Of a stretch of 64,000 nt of DNA, positions 17,341 through 62,043 are shown piece by piece. Location of the stretch: the NCBI RefSeq assembly GCF_009834535.1, contig NC_045696.1, positions 87,732,001 to 87,796,000 on the forward strand. The letters are read 5' to 3'. The first letter of the stretch is position 1; each line of letters opens with the position of its first letter. A model generated the notes under the pieces. The model made no database searches and was not told the DNA's origin. It was given only the letters and a program-made list of their open reading frames with translations. Source of the stretch: Camelus ferus. Lineage: Eukaryota. The position numbers were made by a program, and so were the translations under genes.

Positions 17341-18079
17341 GGAAAGTCACTAACATCCCCAGAGTTTAATAGGGTAAAGTAAAAACCCGCCAAGCACAGA
17401 TATATATTGCCTTAAGCACCAAGAGTTACAAAACCACAGCTCAGTAAAGAATAAGGAATTCCTTTTAGTGCCATAAACCCTCTTCCTCAAGCCAACCCCA
17501 AAGCAGTCTGACAAGACTGCCAAGAGCGTGAGGTCTCTTTCAGTTTTGTTCTTATTCTCAATTTTTTAAATAAAAAAATCACCTTATTTTACAATCACAT
17601 GGCTAACATAAGGCAAAGACTATATTTAATCTTCTTCTCTTCAGTAATATCTGTTCTGTGAAGTATGGCGAACAATTATGACACAGGCCTCTAATTCCAA
17701 GAGCTCAAGTTCTAATAGAAGCAATACAAATATTTAGAAAACAATATGAGACAATATAGAAGAGATGAGTTGTACGGTAAGGTTATAAGGTAACCCCACT
17801 GGAAACAACTAATGACTTTTTTTTAATATGACCAATGCCATTCAAATCATTACTTCCAACAATAATCAGCTTTTCAAAATTAGAACTCAAACCCTGGGCT
17901 ACTTGTATCTCGTCTCTCTTGGAGACAACAGATCTCTGGTTCTAGCACATTTTCACTACTCATTTTACTGTTACTGTGTATAATACACATTATCTCTGAC
18001 AGTATTTAAGATGGTTGTCATAGCACGAAGAGGTCCTTGGAAATTTCTTATGGTCTTAGCCTTGAGTCATCAGGTCAAC

Positions 18080-18830
18080 AAAACCACAAGGAGACAATGC
18101 GATACCTACCATTTCATACCCATTAGGATGGCTCTTATCAGGTAAGTAGTAAATAAATAAACACATGTTGGCAAGAATGTAGGGGAATTGGAATCTTTGT
18201 GCATTTCTGGTGGGATTATAAAATTCTCAGTCACTGTGGAAGATACAGTGGTGATTCTTCAAAAATTTAAACAGAATTTCCTTTTAATCCAGCAATTCTA
18301 CTTCTGGGTATATTTTCAAAAGAAATTAAAGCAGATACTTTAGCAAACACCTGCATACCAATGTTTACAGCAGCATTATTCACAAGAGTCAAAACACGGA
18401 AGCAACTGGAGTGTCCATGGATAGATGAATGGATAACAAAATGTGGTATATGCATGCAATGGGATATTAACTTTAGAAAGTAAGGAAGTTGTGACTCATG
18501 CTGCAACATGAATGAACCTTGAGGACATTAGGCCAAGTGAAATAAGCTAGTCACCAAAAGACAAATACTGTAGGATTCTACTTACATGAAATACCTAGAG
18601 TAGTCAAAACATAAAGACAGAAAATAGAATGATTGTTTCTCGGGCTGGAGAAAAGGGAGAATGGGCAGTTGTTTAATGAGTATAGAGCTTCAGTTTTGCA
18701 AGATGAGAAGAGCTCTGGAGAGTCGTTGTATGAACAATGTGAATGTACTTATATCACAGAACTGTACACTTAAAAATAGTCAAAATTGTCAATTTTATAT
18801 ATGTATGCTTCATCACAATAAAAAATAAAG
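18080..18830 (+). mobile_element. L1 (L1MB-type) 3' end
   Basis: CCAGCAATTCTACTTCTGGGTATA, GAATGGATAACAAAATGTGG and a 3'UTR GAACTGTACACTTAAAA, followed by an A-rich tail. Confidence 0.9.
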
Positions 18831-19309
18831 CCAAAAAGCTAACAGCTTTACTAACAATATCAAGTGACAGCTTTTCTAAATGGTCCATGGAGAAATAAGG
18901 CAACTTACCTGGCCCCTATTGTATAGTCATCTGGGTAGGTTCTGTTGCTTCTCTCTCTCACACATCTGCATCCTAAATCACTATGCGCTAGCTCCATCAC
19001 TGCACAACAGATCACTTTGAATGGGGGATAGAAAGAGTCCCTGTGGTTTTGTTGACCTGATGACTGTTGTCTTCAGCCCAGAGAGGGGATGTTCTCTTAT
19101 CTCACCCTTTTTATCCCTGTTTACCAAAGGCTTGATAACTCTCATTAATTCTATCCTTGGTGAATGGATGACCCTAGAAATGACTGTCCCTTGGTCCTCC
19201 AGGATAACTAAAGTTACATCACATCTTTACTGTGGATTAGAGTCCTAAGATCTCAACACTTGTCTGGAGCTTGACTGGATTTTTCATGCACCTATTTAAT
19301 ATCTGTGAT

Positions 19310-20962: not shown

Positions 20963-20998
20963 AGAAAAATTTTTGAAAAGAAAGACAATTGAAAGAAT

Positions 20999-21165
20999 GA
21001 AAAAAGAAGGAAGGAAGGAAGAAGGAAGAAAAGAAAGAAAGAAAAGAAAGAAAGGAAGAAAGAAAGGAAAGGAAGAAAGGAAGAAAGGAAGAAAGGAAGA
21101 AAGGAAGAAAGGAAGAAAGGAAGGAAGGAAGGAAGGAAGGAAGGAAGGAAGGAAGAAGAAAGAAA

Positions 21166-21238
<73 letters not shown>
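20999..21238. repeat. Compound (GGAA)n/(GGAAGAAA)n/(GAAA)n microsatellite, 240-nt pure purine tract
   Basis: Read directly; only A and G on the + strand. Confidence 0.98.
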
Positions 21239-24200
21239 CTGTGTTGGGTGTTCCAGTAATTAATTTACATAACACTGAGTACACATTAAACAAAATGAAT
21301 AATATATAATTAAAAGAGGAGGATGAAAGAATAGGTAGTTACATAAGTGAATTAAACCTTCATTGTAACAGAAAACAGTTATTAACTAAATTTGGTAAAT
21401 ATCAAATATGTGGAGGTAATACTAAAAGAAAAAGCTAAAATAATCAAAAGTCTGGAGAGTGAGACTTAGTGGCAAGAACTTTACATACATGTGCACACAT
21501 ACATATACACGAATTTTAACTGTATTTGAGAAACACAAGTGTTTAAACATGTGGAATAACACTAAAATTTGGTTTGCTATATCACAGTAGATAATTTGTA
21601 TAAATTTTAAAAGCCTAGAAACAGAGACATCTGGTTTAAAGCATCATAAGACATTATACCCTAAATTGTTTTTAAAAGCAGCTAACTGGAAAACATAATC
21701 TAAATGTTAAACACTTTGGCTTGGGTACCAAAATCACATCATGGTCAATTTCCATTGGCATGTAGACTAGTTACCATTGCTTCCGAGCTGCTTCTGAGAA
21801 TTCATGCCACAATGAACATCGGTGACAAGGTTGAAATTTTTCTCTATTTCTTGTAAGAAACATCATGTGGAAAATATTCTTTTCTCCTAAGCACGAGAGA
21901 GAAAAGCTGACTTCATAGCCACATTATTCTTCAACAGTTGCCAGTCCTTCATATCTTTTGCCATTATCTTTAAATAAAAACTTCATTTTCAGACAATTCA
22001 GTCATTTACAATGCCCTGCTTAAAAGTGAGAGAGAACTAACAAGAGACGAAATTTGAACACTTTCTGAACAGCCATTTCCTCATTTGTGAGATGGAAGGG
22101 GGTTGATTTGATTCCCAAGGACCCTTCTATAATTCAATTCTATGATTTCTCAATTTCTGCCCAATAGGAATATCTTTCCTTTCAGTGACATCACACCCTT
22201 CTCCATCAGGCATTACAGATGATAACAGAGCCAATGTACCCAGACATAAAATTACCTATTAACTTTGTTCCCTTTTGCTTTGATAAGAATGTCAAGTTTT
22301 ATACTTTAAAGTGAACAGTTTTTGCATCCTTCCAAATAATCTAAAGTACTCCAAGACACAGCCAAAGCATTATTAGAAACCAAACTGCCTCTTAGTAGAA
22401 CTTTTAGTTCCACTTTTAAGACAGGAAAGGTTCCCAGTTGTGGCAGAAAAAGATAAAGTAAAAAGGAAGAAGACAAGTGAAAAATTAAATTAATTTAAAT
22501 ATTACAAAGTTGAAAATAATAACAGTTCTTATTCTATTATTAGAAGTCTCTATTACTCATCATTTTTATTAACTGCAAGGCTATATCAATTTTGATTCAT
22601 TTAAATTATCCAGCTGCATTCAGGAAATACTCTTCTGAGACAACTCCTATATTTCTGTATGTTCCATAGTTCATTATGTTGCTATATACATAATCTTAAA
22701 TACTCAATGATTGCCTTGCTAGAATTTGGGAAATTTGACTTCTTAACACTTTGGAACTGATTTTATTACTATTTTTCAAGCAACATGAAGCAAGACTTAG
22801 TTAATAGAATACTAGCATTTGCGTGAACATAAAGTCACTCAACCAACAAAAGAAATAAAAAATCAAATTTTCCAACAAATCACAGATCAGTGGGTCTGAG
22901 TCCCCTATTAATTTTATGATACATATTTAAAGTCATAACTTAATTTAAAATTAAAAGGAGATTTTATTCATGTAATTCTCTCTAAGCAAATAAATTAATT
23001 TCCCTTTCTCTAATTACCTTTCAACTGCTTCCAGTAATAGTCTTCCCTATAATAATTGGTCACAAAACATTCAATGTTCTTACAAAGGATACATGCAATC
23101 AAAACTAATGACCCTAAAATAATTTTCTAAGTTTAGAAGACCCAACTGCCTAGTGATTTCTCACGTGCACACACATCTGCAACTTATCCATTTTTGCATG
23201 TTTTATTGGTTTTTATGTTTCTACGCAAGTGTTCTTAGTAGAAAACAAAATGGAAGTGATTTTGGTTTCAAGTCAAATGTGCTAAAATTTGAAACCTGGC
23301 TCAATATCGTATAACCTAAAATATTATTATAAGGAAAAAAAGAAATAGGAACACCAATTGATTTAAATGTTTGGTTTCCCATCTCCTGCTTTTCTGAGAA
23401 CAACACCTCTCTAATATGGAAGCAGGAGGAGATGTCCTGTTTGTACAAAGTGACCCTGGGGCACAGTTTATTGGTGCAGGAAGAGTGGGAAAGGCAAACT
23501 GGACCAATTAGAGCCCTTTCCTGGAAAGCAGAATTAGGACTGTGATATCAGCTATCTATTATTCCATTCCTCAACCTTCTATTTATATAAGCAGCCTCTT
23601 TGCTTATCAACCCACACAGGTAACTCCTATTTTCTTTTTGTTCTCTAAAAAAATGCAATTACAAAAATGCATTAAGAAAGGGTTATACATTTTGCTGAAC
23701 ACTTGTTATAAGGAACATTTATTCCACATGACACACAGCTGACAAATTAAAAACTCCTCAAGAAGCGTTTCTGATCACCAAAGCCCTTCCTGTCATCATA
23801 TGGCTTTGTTTTTCTCTGGCCCTCTTTTCCTCTGGGCTCTGTCTCCTAACTCATCTGTTAAATCCCTCTCTCTTCTAACATGTAAACAATTCATTTTTGC
23901 TCTAGTTTGTACTTCCAATTTACAGATCCAAATTCAATTCCAGATGTGTTAAAACAAAGGTATAATCACTTGCCTGGATAAACTCCCGAAAGAAAATCAG
24001 AGCACCACTGTTTATTACATGGGCATAGCCTCTAGGGTCCTCCTTCCCCTGCTTTAGCAGCGCATGCAATGCATTTTGCAAGTGGAAATTTTAAAGGATG
24101 AAACATCCCTGCATTTAGATGACTTGGTATAGATAAAAGGATACAGGGCTACAGGGCATGACTTAATGGTACCAGATGAAGGAGTTAAGGACACAGTGGG

Positions 24201-36000: not shown

Positions 36001-36449
36001 TTAAAATAATCCTAAAGTTCATCATAGGGTTAGCAAAGATGCTATGGGGATTTGGGAAAAATTGATATAATATTTCTGTTTATTACCTTTATCAGGAAAA
36101 ACCCTGGAGTAGATAATAGAGAGAGATTATAATGCCTCCATATAATATATAATATAGAATTTTAACATAAATTCTAGTTTTCCAGGATGCCTTCAGATAT
36201 TGCTAGAAACAATTTTTTTCAACATCTGAAATTATCATCGGAGGGAGAAAAAGTTACTCTTATATTAAGTAGAAAGATAAAAATTAAGTTAATTCAGTAA
36301 AGGGTTGAACTTATGAAGGTATAATTTTAACTCCTACCTGAGAGTTTTAATTTACTTAAAGACTACTAGGTATTTCTACCTGTAAAACTTGATAGCAGTC
36401 AAAAGTTATCAATAACCTATAGCAATGTTTCTCAAACTATTTCTTAATA

Positions 36450-37285
36450 CACACAACCTTACCCCCAAAAGATCCCACAGGTTAAGGGTTCAGCCCCCAA
36501 AAGATTGCCTCCTACTTCAGGTGCAAACTGCAAGTAGTAGATCCCCAGGTTACTCACAACTCTGTCCAACTTGGCATTAATACAGATTCCTGTGTCCCAG
36601 TAGTTCTTGATTTATTCAGTCTGGGCTGAAGCCCCAAAATTTGTAGGTTCAATAACCCATATGCTGGGTTGACCTCCTCCCCCCTTGGATTCAGTTATTT
36701 GCTAGAACAGAACTTACTTAAGTTTACCAGTTTATTAAAGGATATAATAAAGGATACAAATGGACAGCCAGGTGAAGGGATACAAATGGTGAGGTCTGGG
36801 AGGTTCCTGAACAAGGGACCTTCTGTCCCCATGGAGTTGGGGTGTACCACCCTCCTGGAACCTGGGTGTGTTTACTGATGTGGAAGCTCCCTAAACCCCT
36901 ACTACTGGGATCTTTTGGAAGTTCACAGAGGAAGACCAATTAACTCTATTTCCAGACTGACTGTCTCCTCTCTCTGGAGTGGGGGTGGGGGGCTGGGAGT
37001 ACAGGGAAATCCTGAATATTCCAAGCTTCTAATCTTGGCTTAGTCTTTCAGGTGACCAGCCCCGACCAAGGAGCCATCCAGGAGCCAGCACAGAGCTGCC
37101 TTATTAAAACTAAAGAACACCTATCATTCAGAAAATGACAGGGTTTGGAGCCCTGTTGGGAAGGAGAGTCAAAGACCAAATACTAGAACAAAAGATGCTT
37201 CTAGTGCTCAGGAAACAACAAGGGTTTCAGGATCTCGATGCCAAGGAATCTGGAGCAGATACCAGCACTTTTTCTATCATTTTAT
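36450..37285 (-). mobile_element. MER21-family ERVL solo LTR carrying a 96-bp foreign insert
   Basis: GATCCCACAGGTTAAGGG, TTTACCAGTTTATTAAAGGATAT, GGTGACCAGCCCC and AAAGACCAAATA are collinear with antisense MER21. Confidence 0.85.
36577..36672 (-). repeat. Perfect 96-bp inverted copy of 46046-46141
   Basis: Base-by-base reverse-complement identity, 96/96; the flanking base on each side mismatches. Confidence 0.97.
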
Positions 37286-37679
37286 AGTTTCCAACAAGCA
37301 AATATTTCAAGCCACTTTCCAAAAAAAATTCTATGACTGCCATTGAGTGATAAATTGTGTTTTCACACAAAGATTATGATTAGTACATTTTAATTCATAT
37401 TCCAAAACTGAGTTTACATTCACATGTGATTAAACTGCATAAGACCAAAGAAATTCAAATAAAACAGGATCATGACACAAGCACGTAATACATGTATAAC
37501 TTATTTGACTGTATTAGGAAAAAATGAGATCTAAAAGAGATTTTTAATTGCATCTATAAGTAGACTTTTTTTTTTTCTAACAAAAATAGTAGAGGAGATT
37601 TTACATACTCCTGAGACTGGTTCTTAAGAGATGCTAGAAACCAATATAATAAAGTATGTCCATTGAATTTAAAAATTCA

Positions 37680-38070
37680 AAGAAAATTTATCAAATGCAT
37701 TTATGCATTTTATGTACATTCCTGGGATAAATTCCACTTGGTCACATTGCATTATTACATATTGTTGAGTTCCATTTGCTTACATTTTGTTACCGGTTTT
37801 GTGTCTATGTTCACAAGTATATTGGTCTGTCATTTCATTTTCTTATACGTCTTTGTAAGCTCTTAATATCAGGGTTATGCTGACCTCATAAGATGAATTA
37901 GAAAACTTGCCCTTCTTCTTCGTTTTTGAAAGAGTTTACGCAAGAGTTATTTCTTTTTCCTTAAATGAATCTAATTGATAAGTGAAATCATCTACTCATA
38001 AAGTTATCTTTGTGGCAAGCTTCTTATGATGAATTCAATTTCTTAATAAAATATAGGTTAGATTTTCTGG
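37680..38070 (-). mobile_element. Old L1 ORF2 fragment
   Basis: CCTGGGATAAATTCCACTTGGTCA, GTGTCTATGTTCACAAGTATATTGGTCTGT and TATCAGGGTTATGCTGACCTCATA. Confidence 0.85.
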
Positions 38071-39084
38071 GGTTTTTTGGGCTGAAAAAGGTTAACTGAA
38101 AGCTCCAAGCAAGGAGAATGAGTGGTTTGTGCTCAAAACTCTGAACTCTCCATTTTTTGTTTGTAGAAGTAGACTTTTTAAGTACATATTTATGAACTAC
38201 ATAAATTGATGCATGTGTTAATATAAATTATTTAAAACAAGACAATGAAAGGAAATATTCAATTCAGAATCAGAGAACGAAAATTGTCTTTTAACAAACA
38301 GAAACCAGTGATGTTTCCAAGCAGACTAGTACTAGTATGTAGCTCAGAGTAGTCATAAACTGAAAACTAGTTTCTTAAATGCTAAAAGCCAGTTGAGGAT
38401 GTTGGTTGAACTCCATGAACTGTCTGAGGACAAGTAGGAAATTAGAGACACAGAGTTAGATGCTTTTAAGCAAACTGACCAACATAAGACAAATTCTAAC
38501 TGCTCAGATTCTCATGCTGAAAATTCTCAGTCCATTTATCGGCTGAAATCCGCTGGGCATAAATCTGATTATACCAGCCTTCAAAGTCTCAAAAAGAGTG
38601 TGAAGTATAGCACTGTTCCTATTAGCTCCCTGGGCTCACGAGGTGGCAAGGAAAAGCTTCTATAGGAGAATTTTAAGGAGCCAGGGGTGACTTGAATGGC
38701 CTCCTTACTACTGGATAGGCATGGTCTGCATTGGAGGGCATCTTATTGTTGTATTTTACTGTTGGTCTAGTGAATTTAAACTCACGCACCATTAGAACTG
38801 GATGCAGTCTTTGGGAACTTGGTGAAACTATGGGAGATTTCCCGAGGATGTAAGTATACATGCAAATCCATTCACAAAATTTTAGGTTATTTAAAGACTT
38901 TAGGATATACAATCACAGACCACATGAGTTCATATTCTCACAACACCCCCATGTTACCAAAATGGATAACAGATTCCATTCATTCATTACAGTAACTTAT
39001 AAGTTTACACCTACGTATTCTCCCATACTGTATTATTCCAAGAGAATGAAAAAAAAAAAAAAAGCAGGCAAATAACCCACATTC

Positions 39085-39700
39085 AAAAATCTCCCAGTCT
39101 ATTAAGGGAGACATGATTAAACAATATTAAGGGTCTGATAACAATGAATAAAAGTACAATGACTGTCTACAGGAACAGTTTATACAGAAAACTATGGGAA
39201 CAGAGATGTAGGATCAGACTCAGCCTACCTGTATTATGATTTTCCCGAAGGAGTCGGGGAGACTTTATGGACAAAGCAGCTTTTAGATTGAGTCTTCAAG
39301 GATCAAAAACAATTTAGCCAAGGAAAAGATGGAGCGGCATGATAATGAAAAGAAACCACAAGTGACAAGGGTAAAAGGAATGGCAAGTAATTTCAGTGAT
39401 TCCGTGTGAACTGATAACTGGCTGCATATGGGGAAGGACAGTCTGGGGTGTTAAGAGGGGCAGGGGCCAGGTCACCGAGGAACTTGTGGGCCTTGGTGAA
39501 GAGGCTTCCATGGACCCCATAGCTAATGGCAGGCCTTTAAAGGATTTAAATCACCCAGTGAGACTTGCTCTATACAAAAATCATCCTGGCAGAGGCGTGA
39601 AAAACAGCACTAGAAACAAGGGCGAAGTTTATGGAGAGAAAAAATGGACTGAAGCTAGTGGCAACAGTTACCCGTCTATAATAATATGGATAACAGAAAT
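39085..39700 (-). mobile_element. Decayed LINE-2
   Basis: CAGTCTATTAAGGGAGACA, TTGAGTCTTCAAGGAT and AAAGGATTTAAA...AAAAATCATCCTGGCAG. Confidence 0.6.
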
Positions 39701-39949
39701 CCTACAGGCCTGGGAAATATTTACCAGAAAAGAATCAGCAGGACTTGGGAAGGACCAAAAAATTAATTCACTTGCTCAAGGCCATGCACTTAATTAGTAG
39801 CAGACACATATCTAGAATTAAGTTTCCCAACTCCCAGCCCATTCATCTCTCTAATACTCTCTACTATTTCTTATTGTTTGATAAATTCAAATAGAGGTTT
39901 CAAATTAGGGATTGAAAATTGCCTATTAATGTTGATGACTTTCCCTCAA

Positions 39950-40440
39950 AACCTTCCATTTTTCTTTTAAACAAGCAAATTCGGACTAAGCACATTGTTA
40001 GCGGTTTCCTTTTAACAAAAGTTTTATTGTAATTAAACTCGATCATTATATTATACCTCCCCCCACCCCCTTACAAACAAATGAAGTTTGCTAAGGTCAA
40101 GATTAAATTTTGCCTCTGGTTACCAGCTGAGCCAATGGTTAGCTACATGACCAGAATGTGTGTGTCTATCTGCATGTTAGAATTGTGTCAACTGAATTAT
40201 TTTAAGAACATAGATTTCCCTTTTAACATAATCTCCTTCCTCTATGCCTTTTTTCAAAAGACAGGTTATTCCCACATTTTATCATACAACAACTGAACAG
40301 CTATGGTCTATCAATAGATATCTACAGATACCACCGAGTCCTGTTTGAATGTGCCCTCTTTGCCCTGATACAAGGAGGGCTTCGGGTGGGAAAAGGGCAT
40401 CTTATTGCTATGATTTCAAAGGTCAAAGAACTGGAAGTAT
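39950..40440. promoter_or_regulatory. Candidate conserved non-coding element
   Basis: Repeat-free with retained CpGs; CATTGTT, GTAATTAA, CAGCTG and AAAGGTCA (40418). Confidence 0.3.
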
Positions 40441-42429
40441 TGAAAGCCCTTTTATTAATTTTGTCTGTCTTATTCTTAAGAACACAAAATTATATTCTGC
40501 TCTGTTTACTAAATCAGAATAACTGTTTTCACTTTATGTGATAAATTGACATGTCTATTTTTGGAAACAATAAACTGAAAACAAGTGAATCACTAAATTA
40601 TTCTAAATAGGGAATGGGAATATTTTCCAATTTAAGTAGGAACACTATTTTCAAAATGTATGTCATAAAGGAAGCCAATCAGGAGCCAATATAAAATCAG
40701 AACACTAAAAAAGGAAGGAAAGCTGTACTGATAAGGTATTTTATAAGATGTATTTTTTTCATATTTACTAAAATAATTATTATAGATTACTTTATTAAAT
40801 GAAAAATTTTCACCAGCTTCTACTCTGTGCAGAGTGTTGTCCTAGACACTAGAGTTAAACAGTTAATCAACCTTGTGCCAGTCTTCACAAAGCTCACAGT
40901 AGCTTAGAAAATAGTCAAGGAATCAGACAATTGCAATAGAGTTTGGTAAGTGACATAATAGAGGTATTGAGCAATATCACTTTTCGATGATTCAAATAGT
41001 GGTATAGAAATAAAGTTGAAATAGATGAGAGTCTAGGCAACAATGGGTGATGATTTCTATTCTCTGTTAAAACCAGAAGTAGGATTTTATTATACTGCTA
41101 TGTTGTTTTTTTTAACTCAGGTCTTCTAAAACTCAGTATTTGATTCTCAGAAATCCTCATAAAGATCTTTTGTCTAAAAAATAAATCAATCTTCACTGAA
41201 GAGTAAAGAGTCCTGTGATTAAAGATGGTGAACTGAACAGTTTTAGTTCCACTGTGTAAACAATCATCTCCTGTTTATTGCAATATAGCTGTAACCCTTT
41301 CTTGTAAAGCTGGATGAACACATAACTTCATTTATTACCTCGGTAGCCTCAGTTATCTTCCTGAAAGTTATGAATTGATAGTTACTGAATAGCTAGCCTT
41401 CTCAAAATTATTCTTTGTGGATTATCAAATCACCTGAAATGACAATGGAGACACATCCTTCTTCATTAAATATCTGTCTCTCCAGAAATCAAAATATAAA
41501 TATAAATTGTGTGAGTCATAACACACTTACTTATTGTCCATTAAATGTTATTATTCATCTCCTTGAGGATGACATTGGGAAAGGGGAGCTCAAGGGAATG
41601 GGTATTAGATTCATCAGAGAACGCTTGATGTGGGCACCAAGGTAAGAACTCTGCCAGGATTCTCTAGAAAGGATTTCACTTGATATTCCTATAAAGCAGT
41701 GATTTTTTTTTTAAGGAACTGGATTAGGATTTAGAAAACCTAGTTTCAGTTTTATGCTCTGCCATTAACTAGCCAACTGGTCTAGGGTGTGTATGTCATT
41801 TGAGTTGATTTGGTCTTATTTTCTTAATCAGTGAATGAAGAAATATCACCAGCAAACTTTCAAGGCCTTTCCAACTCTGAGTTTTGAATAACGTGAACAT
41901 TATAATTAGAAAACAGCAGAACAAAAAGCTGTTGAAAATGGAGACATGACATTGGGAACAGCTGCAGAGATGAGCTTGGATATTACAAATTTAGCCTAGG
42001 GCCTGCCCATCGTCCAAGGTGACTACTTCATTATTTTGAATAATTCCACCAGATTGTGTTGGGTTTTTTCCTCTTTTTTGTTTTTTTACAATAACGATCT
42101 TTCAAAAACACCAGGTTAAAATAAATATTTAACTAAGAAAAATGTGTATGATCAACTCACTTTTATTCTAATAACAGAAACTTCTACTCTCCTATTTATA
42201 TTCAATTGGATTTTATACTCATACCAGTAACTATAGATTCATCGTTGTTTTTATGTTAAATGTTCTTAAAGTTAACATGACCACATCATTTGAAGCTCAG
42301 ACCAAAGGAGAAAAACTGAATCATGCTCATTTTTAAAAGAAGATGAAGAGGAACATTATGAAAGTTTCCAGATGATCAGCAACTCCCAGAAACTGGTTTG
42401 TCTTCATTTTGAGAAACTTCCTTTTACAT

Positions 42430-43000
42430 TCAGTTTAATGCATTTAGGAGTAAATCATTCAGGAAGTCGATAAAGATTCATTACTTAACTACGGGGAAGT
42501 CTAAAAGAGCAGTTAGCAGCAGCTGTGTGGATTTACTGCTTGTCTACTCCACATCTAGGGCATAATGGATATCCCGCAATTTGGGTAATGCAACATTATC
42601 TGTGTTGATTGTAGATATTACGGCAAGATATTATGCTTTTTTAAAGAGTGCTTTAAAGTGAAACAACTACATGATGGGTAAGGAGACATTATCCATCCTG
42701 GGGTAAAATTTTCTTGAGACTTCACCATTCCAGTAAAATAAGAGTTTGGAAACACCTTCTTCAAGAAGGAGAACAGTGTTCAGGATTGGCAGGGCCCAAT
42801 GACACATTTTGCAAATGAAATGCACCACCTTCATCTCCACAAATGATAAATATGGAAGCAACCAGATGTTGCAGATACCAAACTGACAGCCTGTGTTGAT
42901 TTTGACTCAGAATGAGTTATACTGTTGGGCAGGATGGTGAATGCAGGGGAATCGTTTACATAAAGGAGTGAGAAGACTTTCAAGCTGCCAAAGAATGGGT
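42430..43000. promoter_or_regulatory. Candidate conserved non-coding element
   Basis: Repeat-free with CpGs; CAGCTG (42519), TGCAAAT and TGACAG (42885). Confidence 0.3.
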
Positions 43001-43269
43001 GATAACTATGAAAGATAAAACTATAGCTTAATATTTAAATTTCACCCATCTATAAGAGAATGTGTATCCATGTTTAAAATAATAAAACACAAGGTGACTT
43101 TTGTAGTCTATGATGAATTTAGATACAGGTCCTAAAATATGGTTACTACAATGTAAATCTAAATTTGGGCCAATATTACTAGAAGCAATTTACAACACTT
43201 CAGCAAGGATAGATAGTTCTCTTTTTTCTTTAATATGTAAGAAATGGAGTTCTACGGAGTTCTAATGCT

Positions 43270-43452
43270 TCTGTGCCAGTACTAACTGACAGCTATTATT
43301 TACTGAGCATTAAGTTTCACAACTCTGTGAGGTAGGTATTATTATTTCATCTTTACAGATAAGGACACTGAGGCAGAGTTTAAAGAAATTGACCAAGAGT
43401 GCAGTTAAAAAGTAGCAGAGTCGAGATTTGAACCCAGGGAGATTGACTTCAA
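43270..43452 (-). mobile_element. MIR SINE
   Basis: CTCTGTGAGGTAGGTATTATT...TTTACAGATAAGGACACTGAGGC...GATTTGAACCCAGG. Confidence 0.9.
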
Positions 43453-43453
43453 A

Positions 43454-43455
<2 letters not shown>

Positions 43456-43490
<35 letters not shown>
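43456..43490. repeat. (CA)n microsatellite
   Basis: Read directly. Confidence 0.97.
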
Positions 43491-43492
<2 letters not shown>

Positions 43493-44100
43493 GCCTCTTC
43501 CAATCAGGCCTTTGATTTCATTTATTTGACAACCATTCAATAAACACCTTTAAGCTGAAGTTACTACAACTAGTGTCACAGAGGAACAGGGATAAATACC
43601 ATATAGCTGTTACTCTCAGAATGCTCACAACAATGACATCAGAAGATCGATATGTTACAATTGTGTCTCCCTGTTGCAAATGCCCTTATTAGTCTGCTCC
43701 CCCTCACCTAAGCCCAGCTCCGTGTTTACACGTTCATCTTCAGCTGCTATGGACAGTAGGAGACATTTGCATTTGGGACAGTTGCCTAAGACACAGAAAC
43801 CCTGATATTACTGCTACAGGACACCGAATGATAATGTCACAGGATGAAGACAATTCGTCTCTCTGGTAGCTAAGCCAGATCTCCTGTACTTTCCATATTC
43901 TCATTTCATGTTGATTTTATCCTTCTAAAGCCTCATTTAAGTCACTGAGCACCTTGATGTGGCTGAAATAAAAACTTTCCCATGAAATAACGTAAGTTTG
44001 GGGAAAGCCCACTGGGAAAAAACTAAGCATAGTTTAGGGATTTTGCCATACTTAAACATGTTTTATGATGTGGAGGAGAGTGAGTGGTAGTAGAATTTCC

Positions 44101-44203
44101 ACTAGATTAAACACAGGCTCATAAATTACCCTGTCATAGACCCATGGTTGCTGACAGAGGAAAGGAGACTCCTGGACTAGAAACAGAGGACTTTATCAAT
44201 CAC

Positions 44204-44234
<31 letters not shown>

Positions 44235-44578
44235 GCAGACATCTCAGCATATTTCTGCTGCTCCTCCTTGTCCTGAAGACCACGGGGTGACATGATGGGT
44301 GGAGATGGATGTCTATGAAAGCAGAGAGTTGCACTCCTGCTAAGGAGCTCTGAGTTTAAAAAAATCCGCCACTTTTAGAGCAAGTAGTAACCAGGCATGT
44401 TCTTTGGCCAGAGAGAGACCGAGTGCTATGTTGGACTATGTGATGAATTCCCGGGAGACATTAACTCACTTTTCAAAATTGCAGCTGCAAATACAATCCA
44501 GGGAAGTGGCTAGGGTTTTGGCATCCTTAATAAGACTTGGAGAAGCATAAGAAGCCCACAGCAGACTGCCTCCTAGCA
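44101..44578 (-). mobile_element. ERVL-class solo LTR (family uncertain) with an internal A28 run
   Basis: GACCCATGGTT...ACTCCTGG...GGACTTTAT...GCAGACTGCCTCCTAGCA pattern; A-run at 44204-44231. Confidence 0.6.
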
Positions 44579-44672
44579 ATATTCAGGGCACAAAATAAAG
44601 CAAATGGGGTCTGGTGTGTGAGCCTAGGTGCCTAAAAGATTACATCCAAAATTTTAAACAAAAATCTTAGAC

Positions 44673-44760
44673 TTTTTTTTTAAATTTAAGTATACTCAGT
44701 TACAATGTGTCAATTTCTGGTGTACAGCACAATGTCCCAGTCGTGTACATACATACATAC
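44673..44760 (-). mobile_element. Short young camelid-type L1 3' end
   Basis: T-run plus CAGTTACAATGTGTCAATTTCTGGTGTACAGCACAATGTCCCAGTCGTGTACATACATA. Confidence 0.8.
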
Positions 44761-46034
44761 AAAGAAACTTTAAAACAACTCCTCTGTGGTTTGGAGATAA
44801 CCTGAATCTCTTTTTCACTGAAAAAAAATTTCTTTACTGTTTTATGAAATCACAAGTCGGGGGATGTTTTTTGACCCTAAATTGGAGCTACTGTAAACCA
44901 TGCAAACATCTTTGAAGAAGCTTCATTTCCTGCTGGTGATATCACGGCAGAGGAAATTTTGTGGTTGATGGAAGGACAGGGTGAGAAGTTCCATGGTGGT
45001 CACTATGCTTACACTCTAAAAAAGCAAGCTAAGTGTTTCTTTTATTGCTGGCTCTGCCTGTTTCTCTATGACCTGAAGAAACTCAATTAACTTCTACGCA
45101 CCTGTCCAATGAGGATAACACTACTTGGTCACACACCTCTGAACGGTGTTGTAAGGAAAAACAAGATAATGCTCATAATGCCTTTGCAGAAAGTTCAAAA
45201 GAAACGTAGAAGGAGAGTACAATGCATCCTTAAACGTGAAAAATGTTCTCCTCCAAATTCTTTGACAAGGCTCGGCTAATAGAGAAAAGCATTTTTAACA
45301 CGCTGCTAAGCATAATTTGTTCCTGAGCATCTGCCATCAACGTACTCCCTAGCAGATGGAGCTCCCCAAGCCATAGTCGGCTTCACCAAATCAACCACAT
45401 AGTAGCACTTAGCCCCACATGTGCACAAAATTTGTATTAGTAGATGGGAAAGGGCTTTTCTATCTGCCCTGTCAGTGTAGAAGAAAACTAAAATCAAAGC
45501 AATTTAATCATGATGCTTAAAATGGTTTTAGTCATTTCCCCCTCATTTGACAATAATGGCTTTAAGGACCTACTGTGTAGCAGGGATAAAGCCAGGTGCT
45601 ACACTAACATAACAGACCAGGAGTGGAAGCCCTGTGGGCATGGAACCCCTGAATTTCTTAGTGCAAGTAAATGGTAGCAGCCTGTGCTTTAGTATTTATT
45701 CTGCAGTACTCTGTGTCCTTGTGAGGAGCCAGATCCTCTCTAGGGTAATCCAAAGCCTATTTAAGAGCTGATTTAAAACATGCAATAATGAAATCTCAGA
45801 AAAATTACTTGTCAAGGTAGAACACCAAACAGCATAGAGAACAGACACCTGTGAAAAAATGTCAAGAGGCTTTCTAGGTCACAGCACAGGGACTCTAGCG
45901 AGGGAGGCGCATTCTCTAATGCTCCTGGACAGAGACTGCCATCGGCACAGCAATCGGTGCAAGTTACACAGGCCAGCGCTACTCCAAAAATGGTCCATAG
46001 GGCCCCCCAAACAGGGCCGTCTAACACATTACAC

Positions 46035-46190
46035 GTGGTAGCAGCTCAACCCAGCATATGGGTTATTGAACCTACAAATTTTGGGGCTTCAGCCCAGACT
46101 GAATAAATCAAGAACTACTGGGACACAGGAATCTGTATTAACAAGTTCTCCAAGTGACTCCTGAGTTTCCCCAAATTTGATAAACTTTGA
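46035..46190. mobile_element. Decayed MER5-like hAT MITE; contains the donor of the 96-bp inverted copy
   Basis: CAGACTGAATAAATCAAGAACT...CAGGAATCTGTATTAACAAGTTCTCCAAGTGA...TTTGATAAAC. Confidence 0.65.
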
Positions 46191-51215: not shown

Positions 51216-51471
51216 AGTAGTCACAGTAACATCCTATTGAGAAAGAATGATTTCTAATTCACCATGATGATTATTTTCTGGTAAGTATCTCGCCTTCTCC
51301 TCTGTTCTTTCTAGCCAAAGTCCACTTCATTGTAACAAAACTCTGTTCTACTGAAACTATCTAATTGTGGGTGTCAGTTAATAATTTTTTTAATTCCCTC
51401 TAATTTATACAGGTTAGTAGACATGCATACAAGACAATAACAATACATTCTGAAATGGGTGCCATGCTATT
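51216..51471 (+). repeat. Copy A of a ~255-bp diverged direct duplication
   Basis: Aligns collinearly with 51974-52233 at roughly 80-90% identity by eye. Confidence 0.95.
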
Positions 51472-51973: not shown

Positions 51974-52233
51974 AGTAGTGACAGTGAAAACATCCTGTTG
52001 AGAAAGAATGTCTTCTAATTCACCTTGATGATTATTTTCTGATAAATATCTTGCCTTCCCCTCTGTTCTTTCTAGCCAAAGGTCTACCACATTGCAACAA
52101 AACTAGATTCTACTGAAACTATCTAACTGGGGGTGTCATTAAGTCATTTTTTAAACTCCCTTCAATTTGCACAATTTAATAAGTATATATACAAGATAAT
52201 AACAATAAATTCTGAAATGGGTAGCCATGCCAT
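51974..52233 (+). repeat. Copy B of a ~255-bp diverged direct duplication
   Basis: Shared blocks TGAGAAAGAATG, TGATGATTATTTTCTG, CCTCTGTTCTTTCTAGCCAAAG, TTCTACTGAAACTATCTAA and TTCTGAAATGGGT. Confidence 0.95.
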
Positions 52234-53097
52234 TTTCAGAATGAAAAAACAGAACTAATTTACAGAATTGTTACTCCTTTTTGCTTTTATGCAAAGAAAC
52301 TTTCAGATGTCAAATCATTCATTTTGATTTGCATACCAGCTTATCAGTTTCAAATTCTGAACCACACATACAAACAATTTGAATGTAGATTACATACACC
52401 ATTTCCTATGGTAATCATCATGGGAGGCAAAATGTCAACACTAAAAAAAGCTACCCAAAGTCTTGGCAATTTTTCTCTTGAGGAAAATGCAAACAAGTAT
52501 GTGAGTCACCTTAATTTCTACTTGTAAATAGTCACTCAAGTACTTTCTTCTGAAATGGAAGTAAAGAAAAGTGATGTCATTCATCAGAATAACGTGCACT
52601 CAAAATAGCAATAATCTTAAAAATATTGGTGAGAAGGAAAATGATAAATGTTTTATACCTTATTTGGGCAGGATGTTATTGCCCTACCTTCAAAATTCAT
52701 TTAGCCTACTTTATGATGAACCTGTATTTTCTGAAAGTATTGTTCATTTAAGGCCAATGGAGACAGTAATTAGATACCATCCTCTAAAACACGAACTACA
52801 AACTTATCCTTTGACCACGATAACCTTGTTCTAAGACCCCCCCACATTTAAATGATTCAATAATACAAGTGAGTATTTGTCTGTAACAAGAGGTAATCAC
52901 CATTCATCAATCAATCATTTGTTTTCAATGAAATATAAACCTTTCTAACAGCATCATGCCCCAAAAGCTAAATTCTAGATGAGGAAGTAATTCATCTCTG
53001 CATTTGGCTTAGTCTCTCCTTAGGGATAACTTTTACTTTATTGACAATGATCCTGGGTCTTCACATAGCAAAAAGAATTATTTAAAGAAAGAAATAT

Positions 53098-58260: not shown

Positions 58261-59620
58261 GTATTTTTCACGGAAAAAATTTGGATTTTCAAAGTACATA
58301 TTTTATTTGATTTTAGCATAAATCATATTTTATGTAAGTAGTGGTTAATTTTTAATTTAAAAGAAAGCTGAAAAACCCTTAGCTGAACTAAGAAAAACAG
58401 AAAGAAGACTCGAATGAAGTCAGAAGTGAAAGAGGAGACATTACAACTGATGCCACAGGAATTTAAAAGTTTGTAAGCGAGTACTATGAACAAATACCAA
58501 AAAATTGGATAACCTAGAAGAAACTCATAAATTCCTGAAACATACAACATACCAAGACTGAATCTTGAAGAAATAGAAAATTTGAACAGATCAATAATGA
58601 GTAAAGAGCTTAAGTCAGAAATTGAAAGCCTCCCAACAAAGAACAGCCAAGGACGGATGGATTCAGTGGTGAATTCCTACCAAACATTTAAAGAAGAATC
58701 AATGTCTGTTCTTCTCAAACTCCCCCAAAAGTTAAAAAGAACACTGCCAAACTCATTTTATGAGGCCAGCATTATCCTGACAACAAAGCAAGATAGGAAA
58801 TCACCGAAAAAGAAAAAAGAAAACTATAAGTCAGTATTTCTGATGAATATAAATGGAAAAATCCTCAACAAAATACTAACAAATCTAGTTTAACACCACA
58901 TTAAAAAGATCATACATTATGACCTAGTGGGATTTACCCCTGGGATGCAAGGATGGTTCAACACATGAATATCAATTAACGTGATACACCAAATCAACAG
59001 AATAAAGGATAAAAACCACATGATTATCTCAACAGATTCAGAAAAGCTTTTGACAAAATTTAACACCCTCTAATGATAAAAACCCTCAAAAACTAGGGAT
59101 AGAGGAAATTATATCAACATAATAAAAGCCACATGTGATAAATGCATTACTAACATTATACCTAATGGTGGCAAACTGAAAGCTTTTCCTCTAAGACCAA
59201 GAACATGAGAGGGATTCCTACTATTGACACTTCTATTCAACATAATACTGGAAGTCCTAGCCAGAGCATTTAGGCAAGGAAAAGAAATAGAAGTCATCCA
59301 AAGTGGAAATAAAGAAGTAAAACTTTCACTATTTGCAGATGACTTATATGTTGACAATCCTAAAGATTCCACAAAATAAAAAATTGTTTGAACTAGTAAA
59401 TTCAGCAAAGCTACAAGGTACATTAGTCAACATGCAAAACTTGGCTGTATTTCTATACACCAACAGTAAACAATCAAAAAGGAAATTAAGAAAGCAATCT
59501 TATTTACAATAGCATCAAAAAGAATAAAATACTTAAGGATAAACTTATCCAATGAAGTGGGAGATTTCTACACTGAAATCTATGAAACACTCCTGAAAGA
59601 AATTAAAGATGACACAAATA

Positions 59621-60500: not shown

Positions 60501-61939
60501 CTAGATACTTCCTGACTTAAAAACATAACTCAAAGCTGCAGTAATCAAAACAGTATGGTACTGGCATAAAGACAGACATAAAGATCAATGGAATAGATTA
60601 GAGAGCACAAAAATAAACATAAGCTCTTAAGGTCAAAGATCTTCAAAAAGTGTGCCAAGACTATACCATGGGGGAAGGGCAGTCTCTTCAACAAATGGTA
60701 CTGGGAAAATGGATATCCACATGCAAAAGAATGAAATTGGATCTTCATCTTATATCACACACAAAAATCACTCAAAATGTATTAAAGGTTGGAACGTAAT
60801 ATCTATAAATATCTAAAATATAAAACTCATTAAATAAAACATAGGAGAAAGACATCATAACATTGACATTGACAATGATTTCTTTATATGACACCAAAAG
60901 TACAGACAACAAAAGCAAAAACAGGCAAGTTGGAATTAAAGTATACTTAAAAGCATCTGTACAGGAAAGGAAACAATCAACAAAGTGAAAAGACAATCTA
61001 TAGAATGGGATAAAATATTTGCAAATCATGTATATTATAGGTGGTAATACCCAAAATATGGAAGGAACCTTTACAACTTAATAGCAAAAAATCAAATAAA
61101 CTGATTAAAAACAGGCAATGGACTTGAATACACATTTCTCCAAAGAACATATAGAAATGACAAACAGGTACATGAGAAGATGCTCATGATCACTTACATC
61201 AGGGAAATAAAAATCAAAACCACAATAAGGTTATCACTTCATACCTGTTAGGATGACCATTATCAAAATAAGAGAAAATAACAAGTGTTGGTGAGGATGC
61301 AGAGAAACTGCAATCCTTGTGCACTGTTGGTGGAAAAGTAAAACAGTGTGGCCTCTATGGAGAACAGTATGAAGGTTACTCAAAAAATTAAAAATAGAAC
61401 TACCATAGTATCCAGAAATACCACTCTGGGTTTTTAACTAAAATAATTAAAATCAAGATCTCAAAGAGATATTTGCACTCTCATATTCATGCCAGTATTA
61501 TTCACAATAGCCAAAAAGTGGAAATTGCCATTGATGGATGAATGAACAAAGAAAATGTGGTATATACATACAATGGAATATTATTCAGCCTTAGAAAAGA
61601 AGGCAATCCTATTATATATTGCAACAGGTATTGACTGAGGATCTTATGCTAAGTGAAATAAGCCAGTCACAGAAAGATAAATACTGCATAATTACATTTA
61701 TATGAGGTATTTAAAGTAGTGAAACTCATAGAAGTACAAAGAAGATTGGTGGCTGTCAAGCTTAGAAAGTTGCAGTTTTAAGGATCTTACTCATAATTTT
61801 GTAATTTGGCATCTAGACAGTTGGTGTTTAATTTCAATATTATGTGTAAGTTTTTTGTCATTTTGAAAATATAATTTTATGTTGCATTATATGGGGAGAT
61901 TCAAATGAGCACCATAATTTTTTTCAGTAAATAATTCTT

Positions 61940-62043
61940 TCTTTCCTTTTTCTTTTCTTTCCTTAATGGAGGTACTGGGGATTGAACCCAGGACTTCATG
62001 CATGCTAAGCACGTGCTCTACCACTGAGCTATATCCTCCCCCA
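61940..62043 (-). mobile_element. tRNA-Ala(AGC)-derived SINE, Vic-1 type (camelid)
   Basis: The - strand reads GGATATAGCTCAGTGGTAGAGCACGTGCTTAGCATGCATGAAGTCCTGGGTTCAATCCCCAGTACCTCCA plus a purine-rich tail; TSD CAGTAAATAATTCTT / CAGTGAATGATTCTT (61925, 62044). Confidence 0.85.

Follow-up and report, generated by a model that had tools for sequence, protein, structure and literature searches.

A 96-bp tract of camel DNA occurs twice within the window, the whole 64-kb stretch analysed here, as perfectly identical arms in opposite orientation, and the patch at 36.6 kb is most likely an ordinary DNA copying or repair scar such as is well documented in mammals. The reading preferred here, with a probability of roughly 0.6, is that the patch is a real germline allele, probably a rare or recent one, which arose as a short inverted duplication when replication or replicative repair copied a local template in cis.

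The inverted pair, its junctions and its presumed host repeats

The recipient arm and the reverse complement of the donor arm (Table 1) are identical at 96/96 positions and the identity ends on both sides, which agrees exactly with the coordinates and identity given in an earlier note on this DNA. This pair is the longest exact inverted match across the 64 kb, the runner-up outside microsatellites being 24 nt long, and about 1e-45 inverted matches of 96 nt are expected by chance. The arms are separated by a spacer of 9373 nt (36673-46045), and lenient blastn and nhmmer searches detected no third copy of the 96-mer in the 64-kb window, which holds two copies in total. As the earlier note had also described, neither a TSD at the recipient site (best flank repeat, 2 nt) nor a poly(A) stretch in the insert (longest A run, 4) was found. 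Its view that perfect identity means a very recent event goes too far, since 96/96 identity by itself allows an arm divergence of up to 3.1% (95%) and is no proof of recency.

Table 1. Position of the two arms, their flanks and their presumed host repeats (coordinates of the window).
Feature	Position	Strand	Basis or remark
Putative MER21-like host of the insertion, old and LTR-like (limits approximate)	36470..37280	+	name and limits provisional
6-nt AACTTG, same as the sequence adjoining the donor arm; ends 3 nt before the left junction	36568..36573	+	643 of the 127,920 positions in the window match equally well
GCA, 3 nt between AACTTG and the copy; original host or untemplated bases	36574..36576	+	sequence
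Recipient arm: the 96-bp insert, opposite in orientation to the donor arm	36577..36672	+	96/96; probably derived, from word shares and presumed repeat context
Right flank, imperfect similarity to the donor onward flank 46045-46037	36673..36681	+	6/9; 10/20 over 20 nt
Putative MER5-like host of the donor, old and DNA-transposon-like (limits approximate)	46030..46190	-	name and limits provisional
Probable donor arm	46046..46141	-	sequence match; donor role probable
Donor-side partner of the 6-nt AACTTG match	46142..46147	-	BLAST alignment of 36568-36681 to 46147-46037

The copy at 36.6 kb presumably interrupts a MER21 LTR, which we take to be collinear across the insert and to have had a short stretch replaced, and the donor at 46 kb is assumed to lie within a MER5-like element. 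No second copy of either host repeat, against which collinearity and direction could be judged, was found in the 64-kb window. A MER5-type element might pass a palindrome test; for the donor context this test was negative, with 324, 309 and 208 of 500 resampled sequences scoring as high. MER21 is listed by name among LTRs and MER5A among DNA transposons (PMC5753468).

Both junctions bear some similarity to the flanks of the donor arm (Table 1). The right flank alone gives P of about 0.07 and both ends combined give P of about 0.005, for a score picked post hoc, after the data had been seen; a match of at least 6 nt on either side arose in 1,231 of 100,000 random pairs. Neither junction passes the strict rule for microhomeology (at least 5 bp, 70% identity and a gap of at most 2 nt; PMC6902434), the left match being offset by 3 nt and the right one reaching 67% identity. 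A simple pattern search found no G-quadruplex-like motifs near either arm.

Public sequencing runs and gene context

The occurrence of the recipient allele was gauged from the share of sampled words of the recipient region in 20 public sequencing runs holding this locus, which represent 19 samples, 6 studies and 3 organism labels; three runs with a share of 0.00 (18-34 million letters) were too small for the locus and were dropped from the counts. The full word set was present in none of the 20 holder runs, the best share being 0.92-0.93, and 19 of them, under three labels, stood at 83-84 of 90 words. A share of 0.929 is expected if just the two junctions are missing and the interior is supplied by the other copy, and one of 0.847 if the whole 96-mer is absent (P of at most 6 missing words, 0.008). 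Because the best share among the holders equals the junctions-missing expectation, the recipient allele is probably rare or private, or else an assembly error, as judged from word shares. The same deficit points to the 36.6-kb copy as the probable derived one, in that the public runs miss roughly as many words as its two junctions would remove; the earlier note had named the 46-kb arm as the donor, a role that these shares make probable. These figures depend on what else is private to the assembly: two private substitutions in 851 bp predict a share of 0.924, near-identical to the absent-junction figure, and the likelihood ratio for absent junctions moves from 23 to 0.6 as the assumed private differences go from 0.1 to 2. 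A 25-nt left-flank pattern used to seek the orthologous allele in metagenome contigs gave 0 matches, an uninformative result as host DNA is unexpected there.

No recognisable gene is touched within the window. Pfam was searched with 205 of the 208 complexity-filtered stop-to-stop ORFs of at least 58 aa (463 ORFs of at least 45 aa exist in the window), a selection in which short exons would be missed, and no match above the curated cut-off was obtained; two weak matches below the cut-off both lie more than 9 kb from the donor. The Rfam search, covering all but 99 window bases, gave one tRNA-like match at 62 kb. The site may possibly be intronic. The proposal of the earlier note that the arms could pair in a pre-mRNA finds no support in the Pfam result for these ORFs, nor does gene or transcript evidence in the window speak for its idea that they could seed an inversion. 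The RNA duplex of the arms was computed at -182.8 kcal/mol, and its stability was set aside as evidence of pairing, since any perfect 96-bp duplex is equally stable and no transcript is known. Nothing suggests a function for the 96-bp scar, which is best regarded as neutral.

Probable template switching and competing explanations

A germline template switch would account for the patch as follows. A 3' end at the recipient site, at a stalled or collapsed fork or a resected break, would anneal over a few bases to the strand of opposite polarity at 46.1 kb, would be extended by 96 nt on this template and then released, and the released end would rejoin its own template slightly further on, with the presumed loss of a few host bases. 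The whole would represent a two-switch event of the FoSTeS/MMBIR type, in which either junction may have primed first. An exact single inverted tract, the lack of a TSD or poly(A) and the short similarities at both ends argue for this origin; against it stand the absence of the complete word set from all 20 runs, so that the junctions lack independent confirmation, the strict microhomeology rule that neither junction passes, and a donor distance of 9.4 kb, beyond the 5 kb typical of human cases. The earlier note had inferred a templated insertion during break repair, by Pol theta or template switching: a non-retrotranspositional copy in cis holds up, given the missing TSD and poly(A) and the flank similarity at both ends, and Pol theta fits poorly with what PMC7165422 describes.

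An artefact of assembly or library construction is less likely; here 96 bp from a site at a distance of 9.4 kb would have entered the consensus through a chimeric molecule, faulty local reassembly or gap-filling. Perfect identity is its normal product, and none of the 20 runs exceeds a word share of 0.93, the maximum expected without the junctions, which leaves the artefact caveat of the earlier note standing and somewhat strengthened. A rare true allele, however, yields identical word shares, and contigs can lose heterozygous variants. The window contains no N, so the recipient site is not next to an open gap, and its long simple repeats have been resolved; similarity over a few bases at both ends is what biological switches typically show; and, by reasoning only, mate-pair short-insert contamination should misplace reads in direct rather than inverted orientation. 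It is improbable that a real allele of greater age is involved, one that is common or has reached fixation in the assembly species, with arms kept identical by chance or gene conversion and with the missing words due to other private differences or to runs from sister species. The divergence permitted by 96/96 identity and the share predicted from two substitutions would both suit such an allele, and the assembly species may be absent from the three organism labels; yet 19 of the 20 runs are almost identical to one another and to the window, and the word deficit equals the junction words without any extra assumption.

An end-joining patch, either a distal-template insertion by Pol theta (TMEJ) or a class 2 TSIP for which the donor region supplied a reverse-transcribed RNA or a free DNA fragment, appears similarly improbable. 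Class 2 TSIPs are free of TSD and poly(A) and carry microdeletions, microhomology and untemplated bases, experimental inserts measuring 73-414 bp (PMC5110952), and distal-template insertions do occur, in <0.1% of repair (PMC7165422); the GCA next to the left junction could be untemplated. Pol theta inserts, however, measure 3-30 bp, with a template typically within 30 bp and first tracts rarely >10 bp (PMC7165422), and the Pfam ORF scan and Rfam revealed no sign of donor transcription in the sequence. Because experimental TSI donors were not nearby but on 18 of 24 chromosomes (PMC5110952), a donor 9.4 kb away favours a cis DNA template. An inversion with staggered breaks was also considered and seems disfavoured, since the host repeats at the two arms are presumably collinear and such breaks would disrupt both.

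If the template-switched allele is real, it is a further clear case of template switching in the germline of a non-human species. It could then serve to mark lineages or pedigrees and would supply a single observation on donor distance; otherwise it exemplifies a kind of small assembly error. A far more speculative and very doubtful proposition is that donors about 9 kb away are the preferred source of exact templated patches in this genome, as the 9.4 kb found here would fit, and thus lie beyond the <5 kb described for human inverted duplications. Were a sharp mode at about 9 kb to appear in read-validated camelid patches, this distance would provide a physical measure of the geometry of germline forks or chromatin loops during template switching, and such a distance would equally arise from a library-scale assembly artefact.

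Comparison with known systems

By title and start of abstract, a weak search of the camel long-read structural-variant literature gave no camelid paper among the matches listed. Pol theta TINS resemble the camel patch in being templated and in that they can be inverted, and they are primed by short microhomology (PMC7165422), whereas the camel patch is one 96-nt tract from 9.4 kb, outside their range of both size and template distance. Class 2 TSIPs (Onozawa and Aplan, 2016, PMC5110952) resemble it in a length of about 100 bp, the absence of TSD and poly(A) and a possible microdeletion with untemplated bases; their donors are distant and an RNA route was proposed for them, whereas the camel donor lies in cis at 9.4 kb, with no indication of an RNA intermediate. 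A class 1 TSIP or L1-mediated origin would call for a TSD of at least 5 bp together with a poly(A) tail (PMC5110952), and the patch carries neither. MMB-TI events (PMC8421209) are likewise inverted copies of a cis template; they replace host sequence, as is presumed here, and they occur as germline variants in normal cells; templates were sought within 100 bp only in that study, and the camel donor is about 100 times further.

The closest counterpart is found among human variants, where short inverted duplications are the commonest class of inversion (PMC4617611, PMC12350158). There, 54% of 229 characterised human inversion sites were inverted duplications, nearly all <1 kb and no more than 5 kb apart from their second copy. 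Of the complex deletions, 53% (871) could be traced to a template at most 10 kb away (PMC4617611); the criterion for a local template was a match of at least 10 bp within 10 kb, the 5 kb being descriptive. Among inversions outside mobile elements, 277/733 were inverted duplications with a median of 284 bp, mostly with 1-15 bp of microhomology and read as replicative (PMC12350158). The camel copy differs in its donor distance (9.4 kb, against 5 kb or less in nearly all human cases; PMC4617611) and in its size (96 bp against the median of 284 bp; PMC12350158), and also in that it is known from assembly sequence, with a presumed accompanying deletion. Like the 'Inverted Dup' and 'Ins with Dup and Del' variants of humans (Sudmant et al., 2015, PMC4617611; Schloissnig et al., 2025, PMC12350158), it is <1 kb, inverted, matched to a template within 10 kb and free of retrotransposition marks such as TSD and poly(A), and its junctions show similarity over a few bases.

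The inverted pair and its setting

The copy at 36.6 kb is identical at 96 of 96 bases to the reverse complement of a segment lying 9373 nt further on, and the match stops at either edge, which bears out the perfect inverted copy described in the earlier note. Because the right flank is partly similar, a repeat finder lengthens the alignment to 105 nt (97% identity). No other exact inverted match in the window is as long (about 1e-45 expected by chance), the runner-up excluding microsatellites measuring 24 nt, and lenient blastn and nhmmer searches of the 64 kb returned these two copies and no third. Identity within the window's remaining repeat pairs is 68-88%, with the exception of one 28-nt pair at 96%, so the 96-bp pair is either far younger than the surrounding sequence or homogenised. 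The host repeats are putatively MER21 (recipient arm) and MER5 (donor arm), and the replacement of a short host stretch by the copy, which depends on these labels, is likewise putative. A palindrome test on the donor context was negative.

The window (35% G+C, zero N) resembles the non-coding DNA of mammals. Of 208 selected ORFs, 205 produced no Pfam hit that passed the curated cut-off, and Rfam, run on all but 99 bases, gave a single match, to a tRNA-like element. This element is probably a simple tRNA-derived SINE rather than a tRNA gene, presumably of the vic-1 type. SINEBase uses the name vic-1 for the simple SINE of camels (PMC3531059). The window also holds a second small inverted pair (chance about 5e-5), which may be the trace of a templated inversion that is older and of shorter range, and a local direct duplication that is old.

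Features of the window and their positions
Feature	Position	Remarks
Recipient arm (copy)	36577-36672	within putative MER21-like LTR
Donor arm	46046-46141	probable donor; opposite orientation; within putative MER5-like DNA transposon
Second small inverted pair	18065-18092 / 19038-19065	27/28 identical (24 exact), 945 nt apart; first arm at head of old repeat fragment
Old repeat fragment	18107-18608	67.5% identical to 61232-61724; taken to be L1-like
Compound microsatellite	20978-21244	about 265 bp, purines only, GAAA/GGAA units, fully resolved
Direct duplication	51216-51471 / 51974-52234	about 260 bp, 83% identity, offset about 760 bp; no Pfam match in scanned ORFs overlapping it
Open stretch	58531-58890 (+)	120 aa; no Pfam match at E 0.01; presumably decayed L1 ORF2-like
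tRNA-like element	~61967-62039 (-)	54.9 bits (Rfam match at 61967-62038); 72 nt, tRNA-Ala(AGC) by ARAGORN, then A-rich tail

Word shares and the age of the copy

The stretch 36200-37050 was queried as 90 sampled 31-mers against an index covering part of the public sequencing runs; the resulting word share, the fraction of these words present in a run, is indirect evidence on the allele. Twenty of the 23 runs listed contain the stretch (19 samples, 6 studies, 3 organism labels), the other three being very small, with next to no words present. Shares were 0.93 in six of the 20, 0.92 in 13 and 0.88 in one; none reached 1.00, the share predicted for a carrier of the insertion. Because about 58 of the 821 31-mers in the stretch span a junction, a share of 0.929 is predicted where the flanks and the donor are present and the insertion is not; for a genome wholly missing the 96-mer the prediction is 0.847, and six or fewer missing words would then have a probability of 0.008. 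The observed shares match flanks and donor present and insertion missing, and as they fit 0.929 they suggest a derived status for the 36.6-kb copy and absence of the allele from the animals behind these runs. Read literally, they put the frequency of the allele below 0.08, a limit that rises to 0.22 with one sample per study. Two private substitutions alone predict a share of 0.924, and the likelihood ratio for absent junctions falls from 23 to 0.6 as more private differences are assumed.

With no difference over 96 bases, the arms may have diverged by up to 3.1% (95% bound). Neutral rates typical of mammals would leave room for several million years at that level, so that identity by itself does not establish the very recent event that had been read from it. 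The one pointer to a younger age is the word shares, which hint that the copy postdates the split among the listed animals; a real copy that is old or fixed is improbable.

Junctions and the proposed route of copying

The absence of a target-site duplication and of poly(A), as claimed earlier, holds: the best repeat in the recipient flanks is 2 nt and the longest A run in the insert is 4. At the left end, AACTTG, the six bases bordering the donor arm on its outer side, recurs 3 nt before the recipient junction, and an equally good match to the donor flank is present at 643 of 127,920 window positions; at the right end, recipient and donor flanks share 6 of the first 9 bases and 10 of the first 20. 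In the proposed check for junction microhomology, few-base similarity was seen at both ends (P 0.016 left, 0.067 right, about 0.005 combined, on a junction-anchored score picked post hoc), and neither end conforms to the strict microhomeology rule as worded in PMC6902434. End bases of the copy may themselves coincide with the host sequence presumed lost.

We favor a replicative template switch that produced a real and rare allele, at a probability of roughly 0.6. Such an anatomy would require a pair of joins, with a single tract of 96 nt between them copied off the opposite-polarity strand 9.4 kb away. By the simplest route, a stalled or broken 3' end would pair with the donor through a few bases, be extended on it, release, and rejoin its own template a short way on; possible templates are the nascent strand, a gap left behind the fork and an invaded duplex in the same chromatin loop, and either end of the copy could have primed first. 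An assembly artefact is the most serious competitor, although distinctly less probable: a real but rare allele would give the same word shares as an error of assembly, and heterozygous alleles can be lost from contigs.

End joining or an RNA patch receives the least weight. The Pol theta-mediated insertion put forward in the earlier note is a poorer fit, since templated insertions by this route, as described in PMC7165422, measure 3-30 bp with first tracts rarely exceeding 10 bp, and use templates typically within 30 bp, distal ones making up <0.1% of repair. A patch made from RNA (class 2 TSIP) could also be considered, but the experimental donors described in PMC5110952 were not nearby, unlike the present one. 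The observation is confirmed and its earlier interpretation partly supported.

Consequences and comparison with known variants

No function is indicated for the copy from sequence, and no gene was recognised in the window. The possible duplex of the arms has a predicted energy of -182.8 kcal/mol, the same as for any perfect 96-bp pair. Efficient ectopic recombination in mammals is usually said to need more than 96 bases, and for this reason the suggested seeding of an inversion by the arms is possible yet unlikely.

Across 2,504 human genomes, 229 inversion sites were characterised and 54% of them proved to be inverted duplications, nearly all <1 kb and <=5 kb from the other copy, and the template lay within 10 kb for 53% of complex deletions (PMC4617611). 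Among 1,019 long-read genomes inverted duplications accounted for 277 of 733 inversions outside mobile elements, more than any other class, with a median of 284 bp and microhomology of 1-15 bp in most (PMC12350158). Normal cells carry germline inverted templated insertions, each person having about 100 whose template is no more than 100 bp away (PMC8421209), and dispersed duplications are a standard category of insertion (PMC7640490). The copy falls outside Pol theta templated insertions, outside MMB-TI as defined by the 100-bp search of PMC8421209, and outside both TSIP classes as given in PMC5110952. With a length under 1 kb, inverted orientation, a template within 10 kb and none of the marks of retrotransposition, it agrees with short inverted duplications from a local template in the features tested, and it would work like the human variants above. 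The 96-bp copy is a candidate allele and would add one more case to a small structural variant class that is known and common, its sole mild oddity being the 9.4 kb to the donor.
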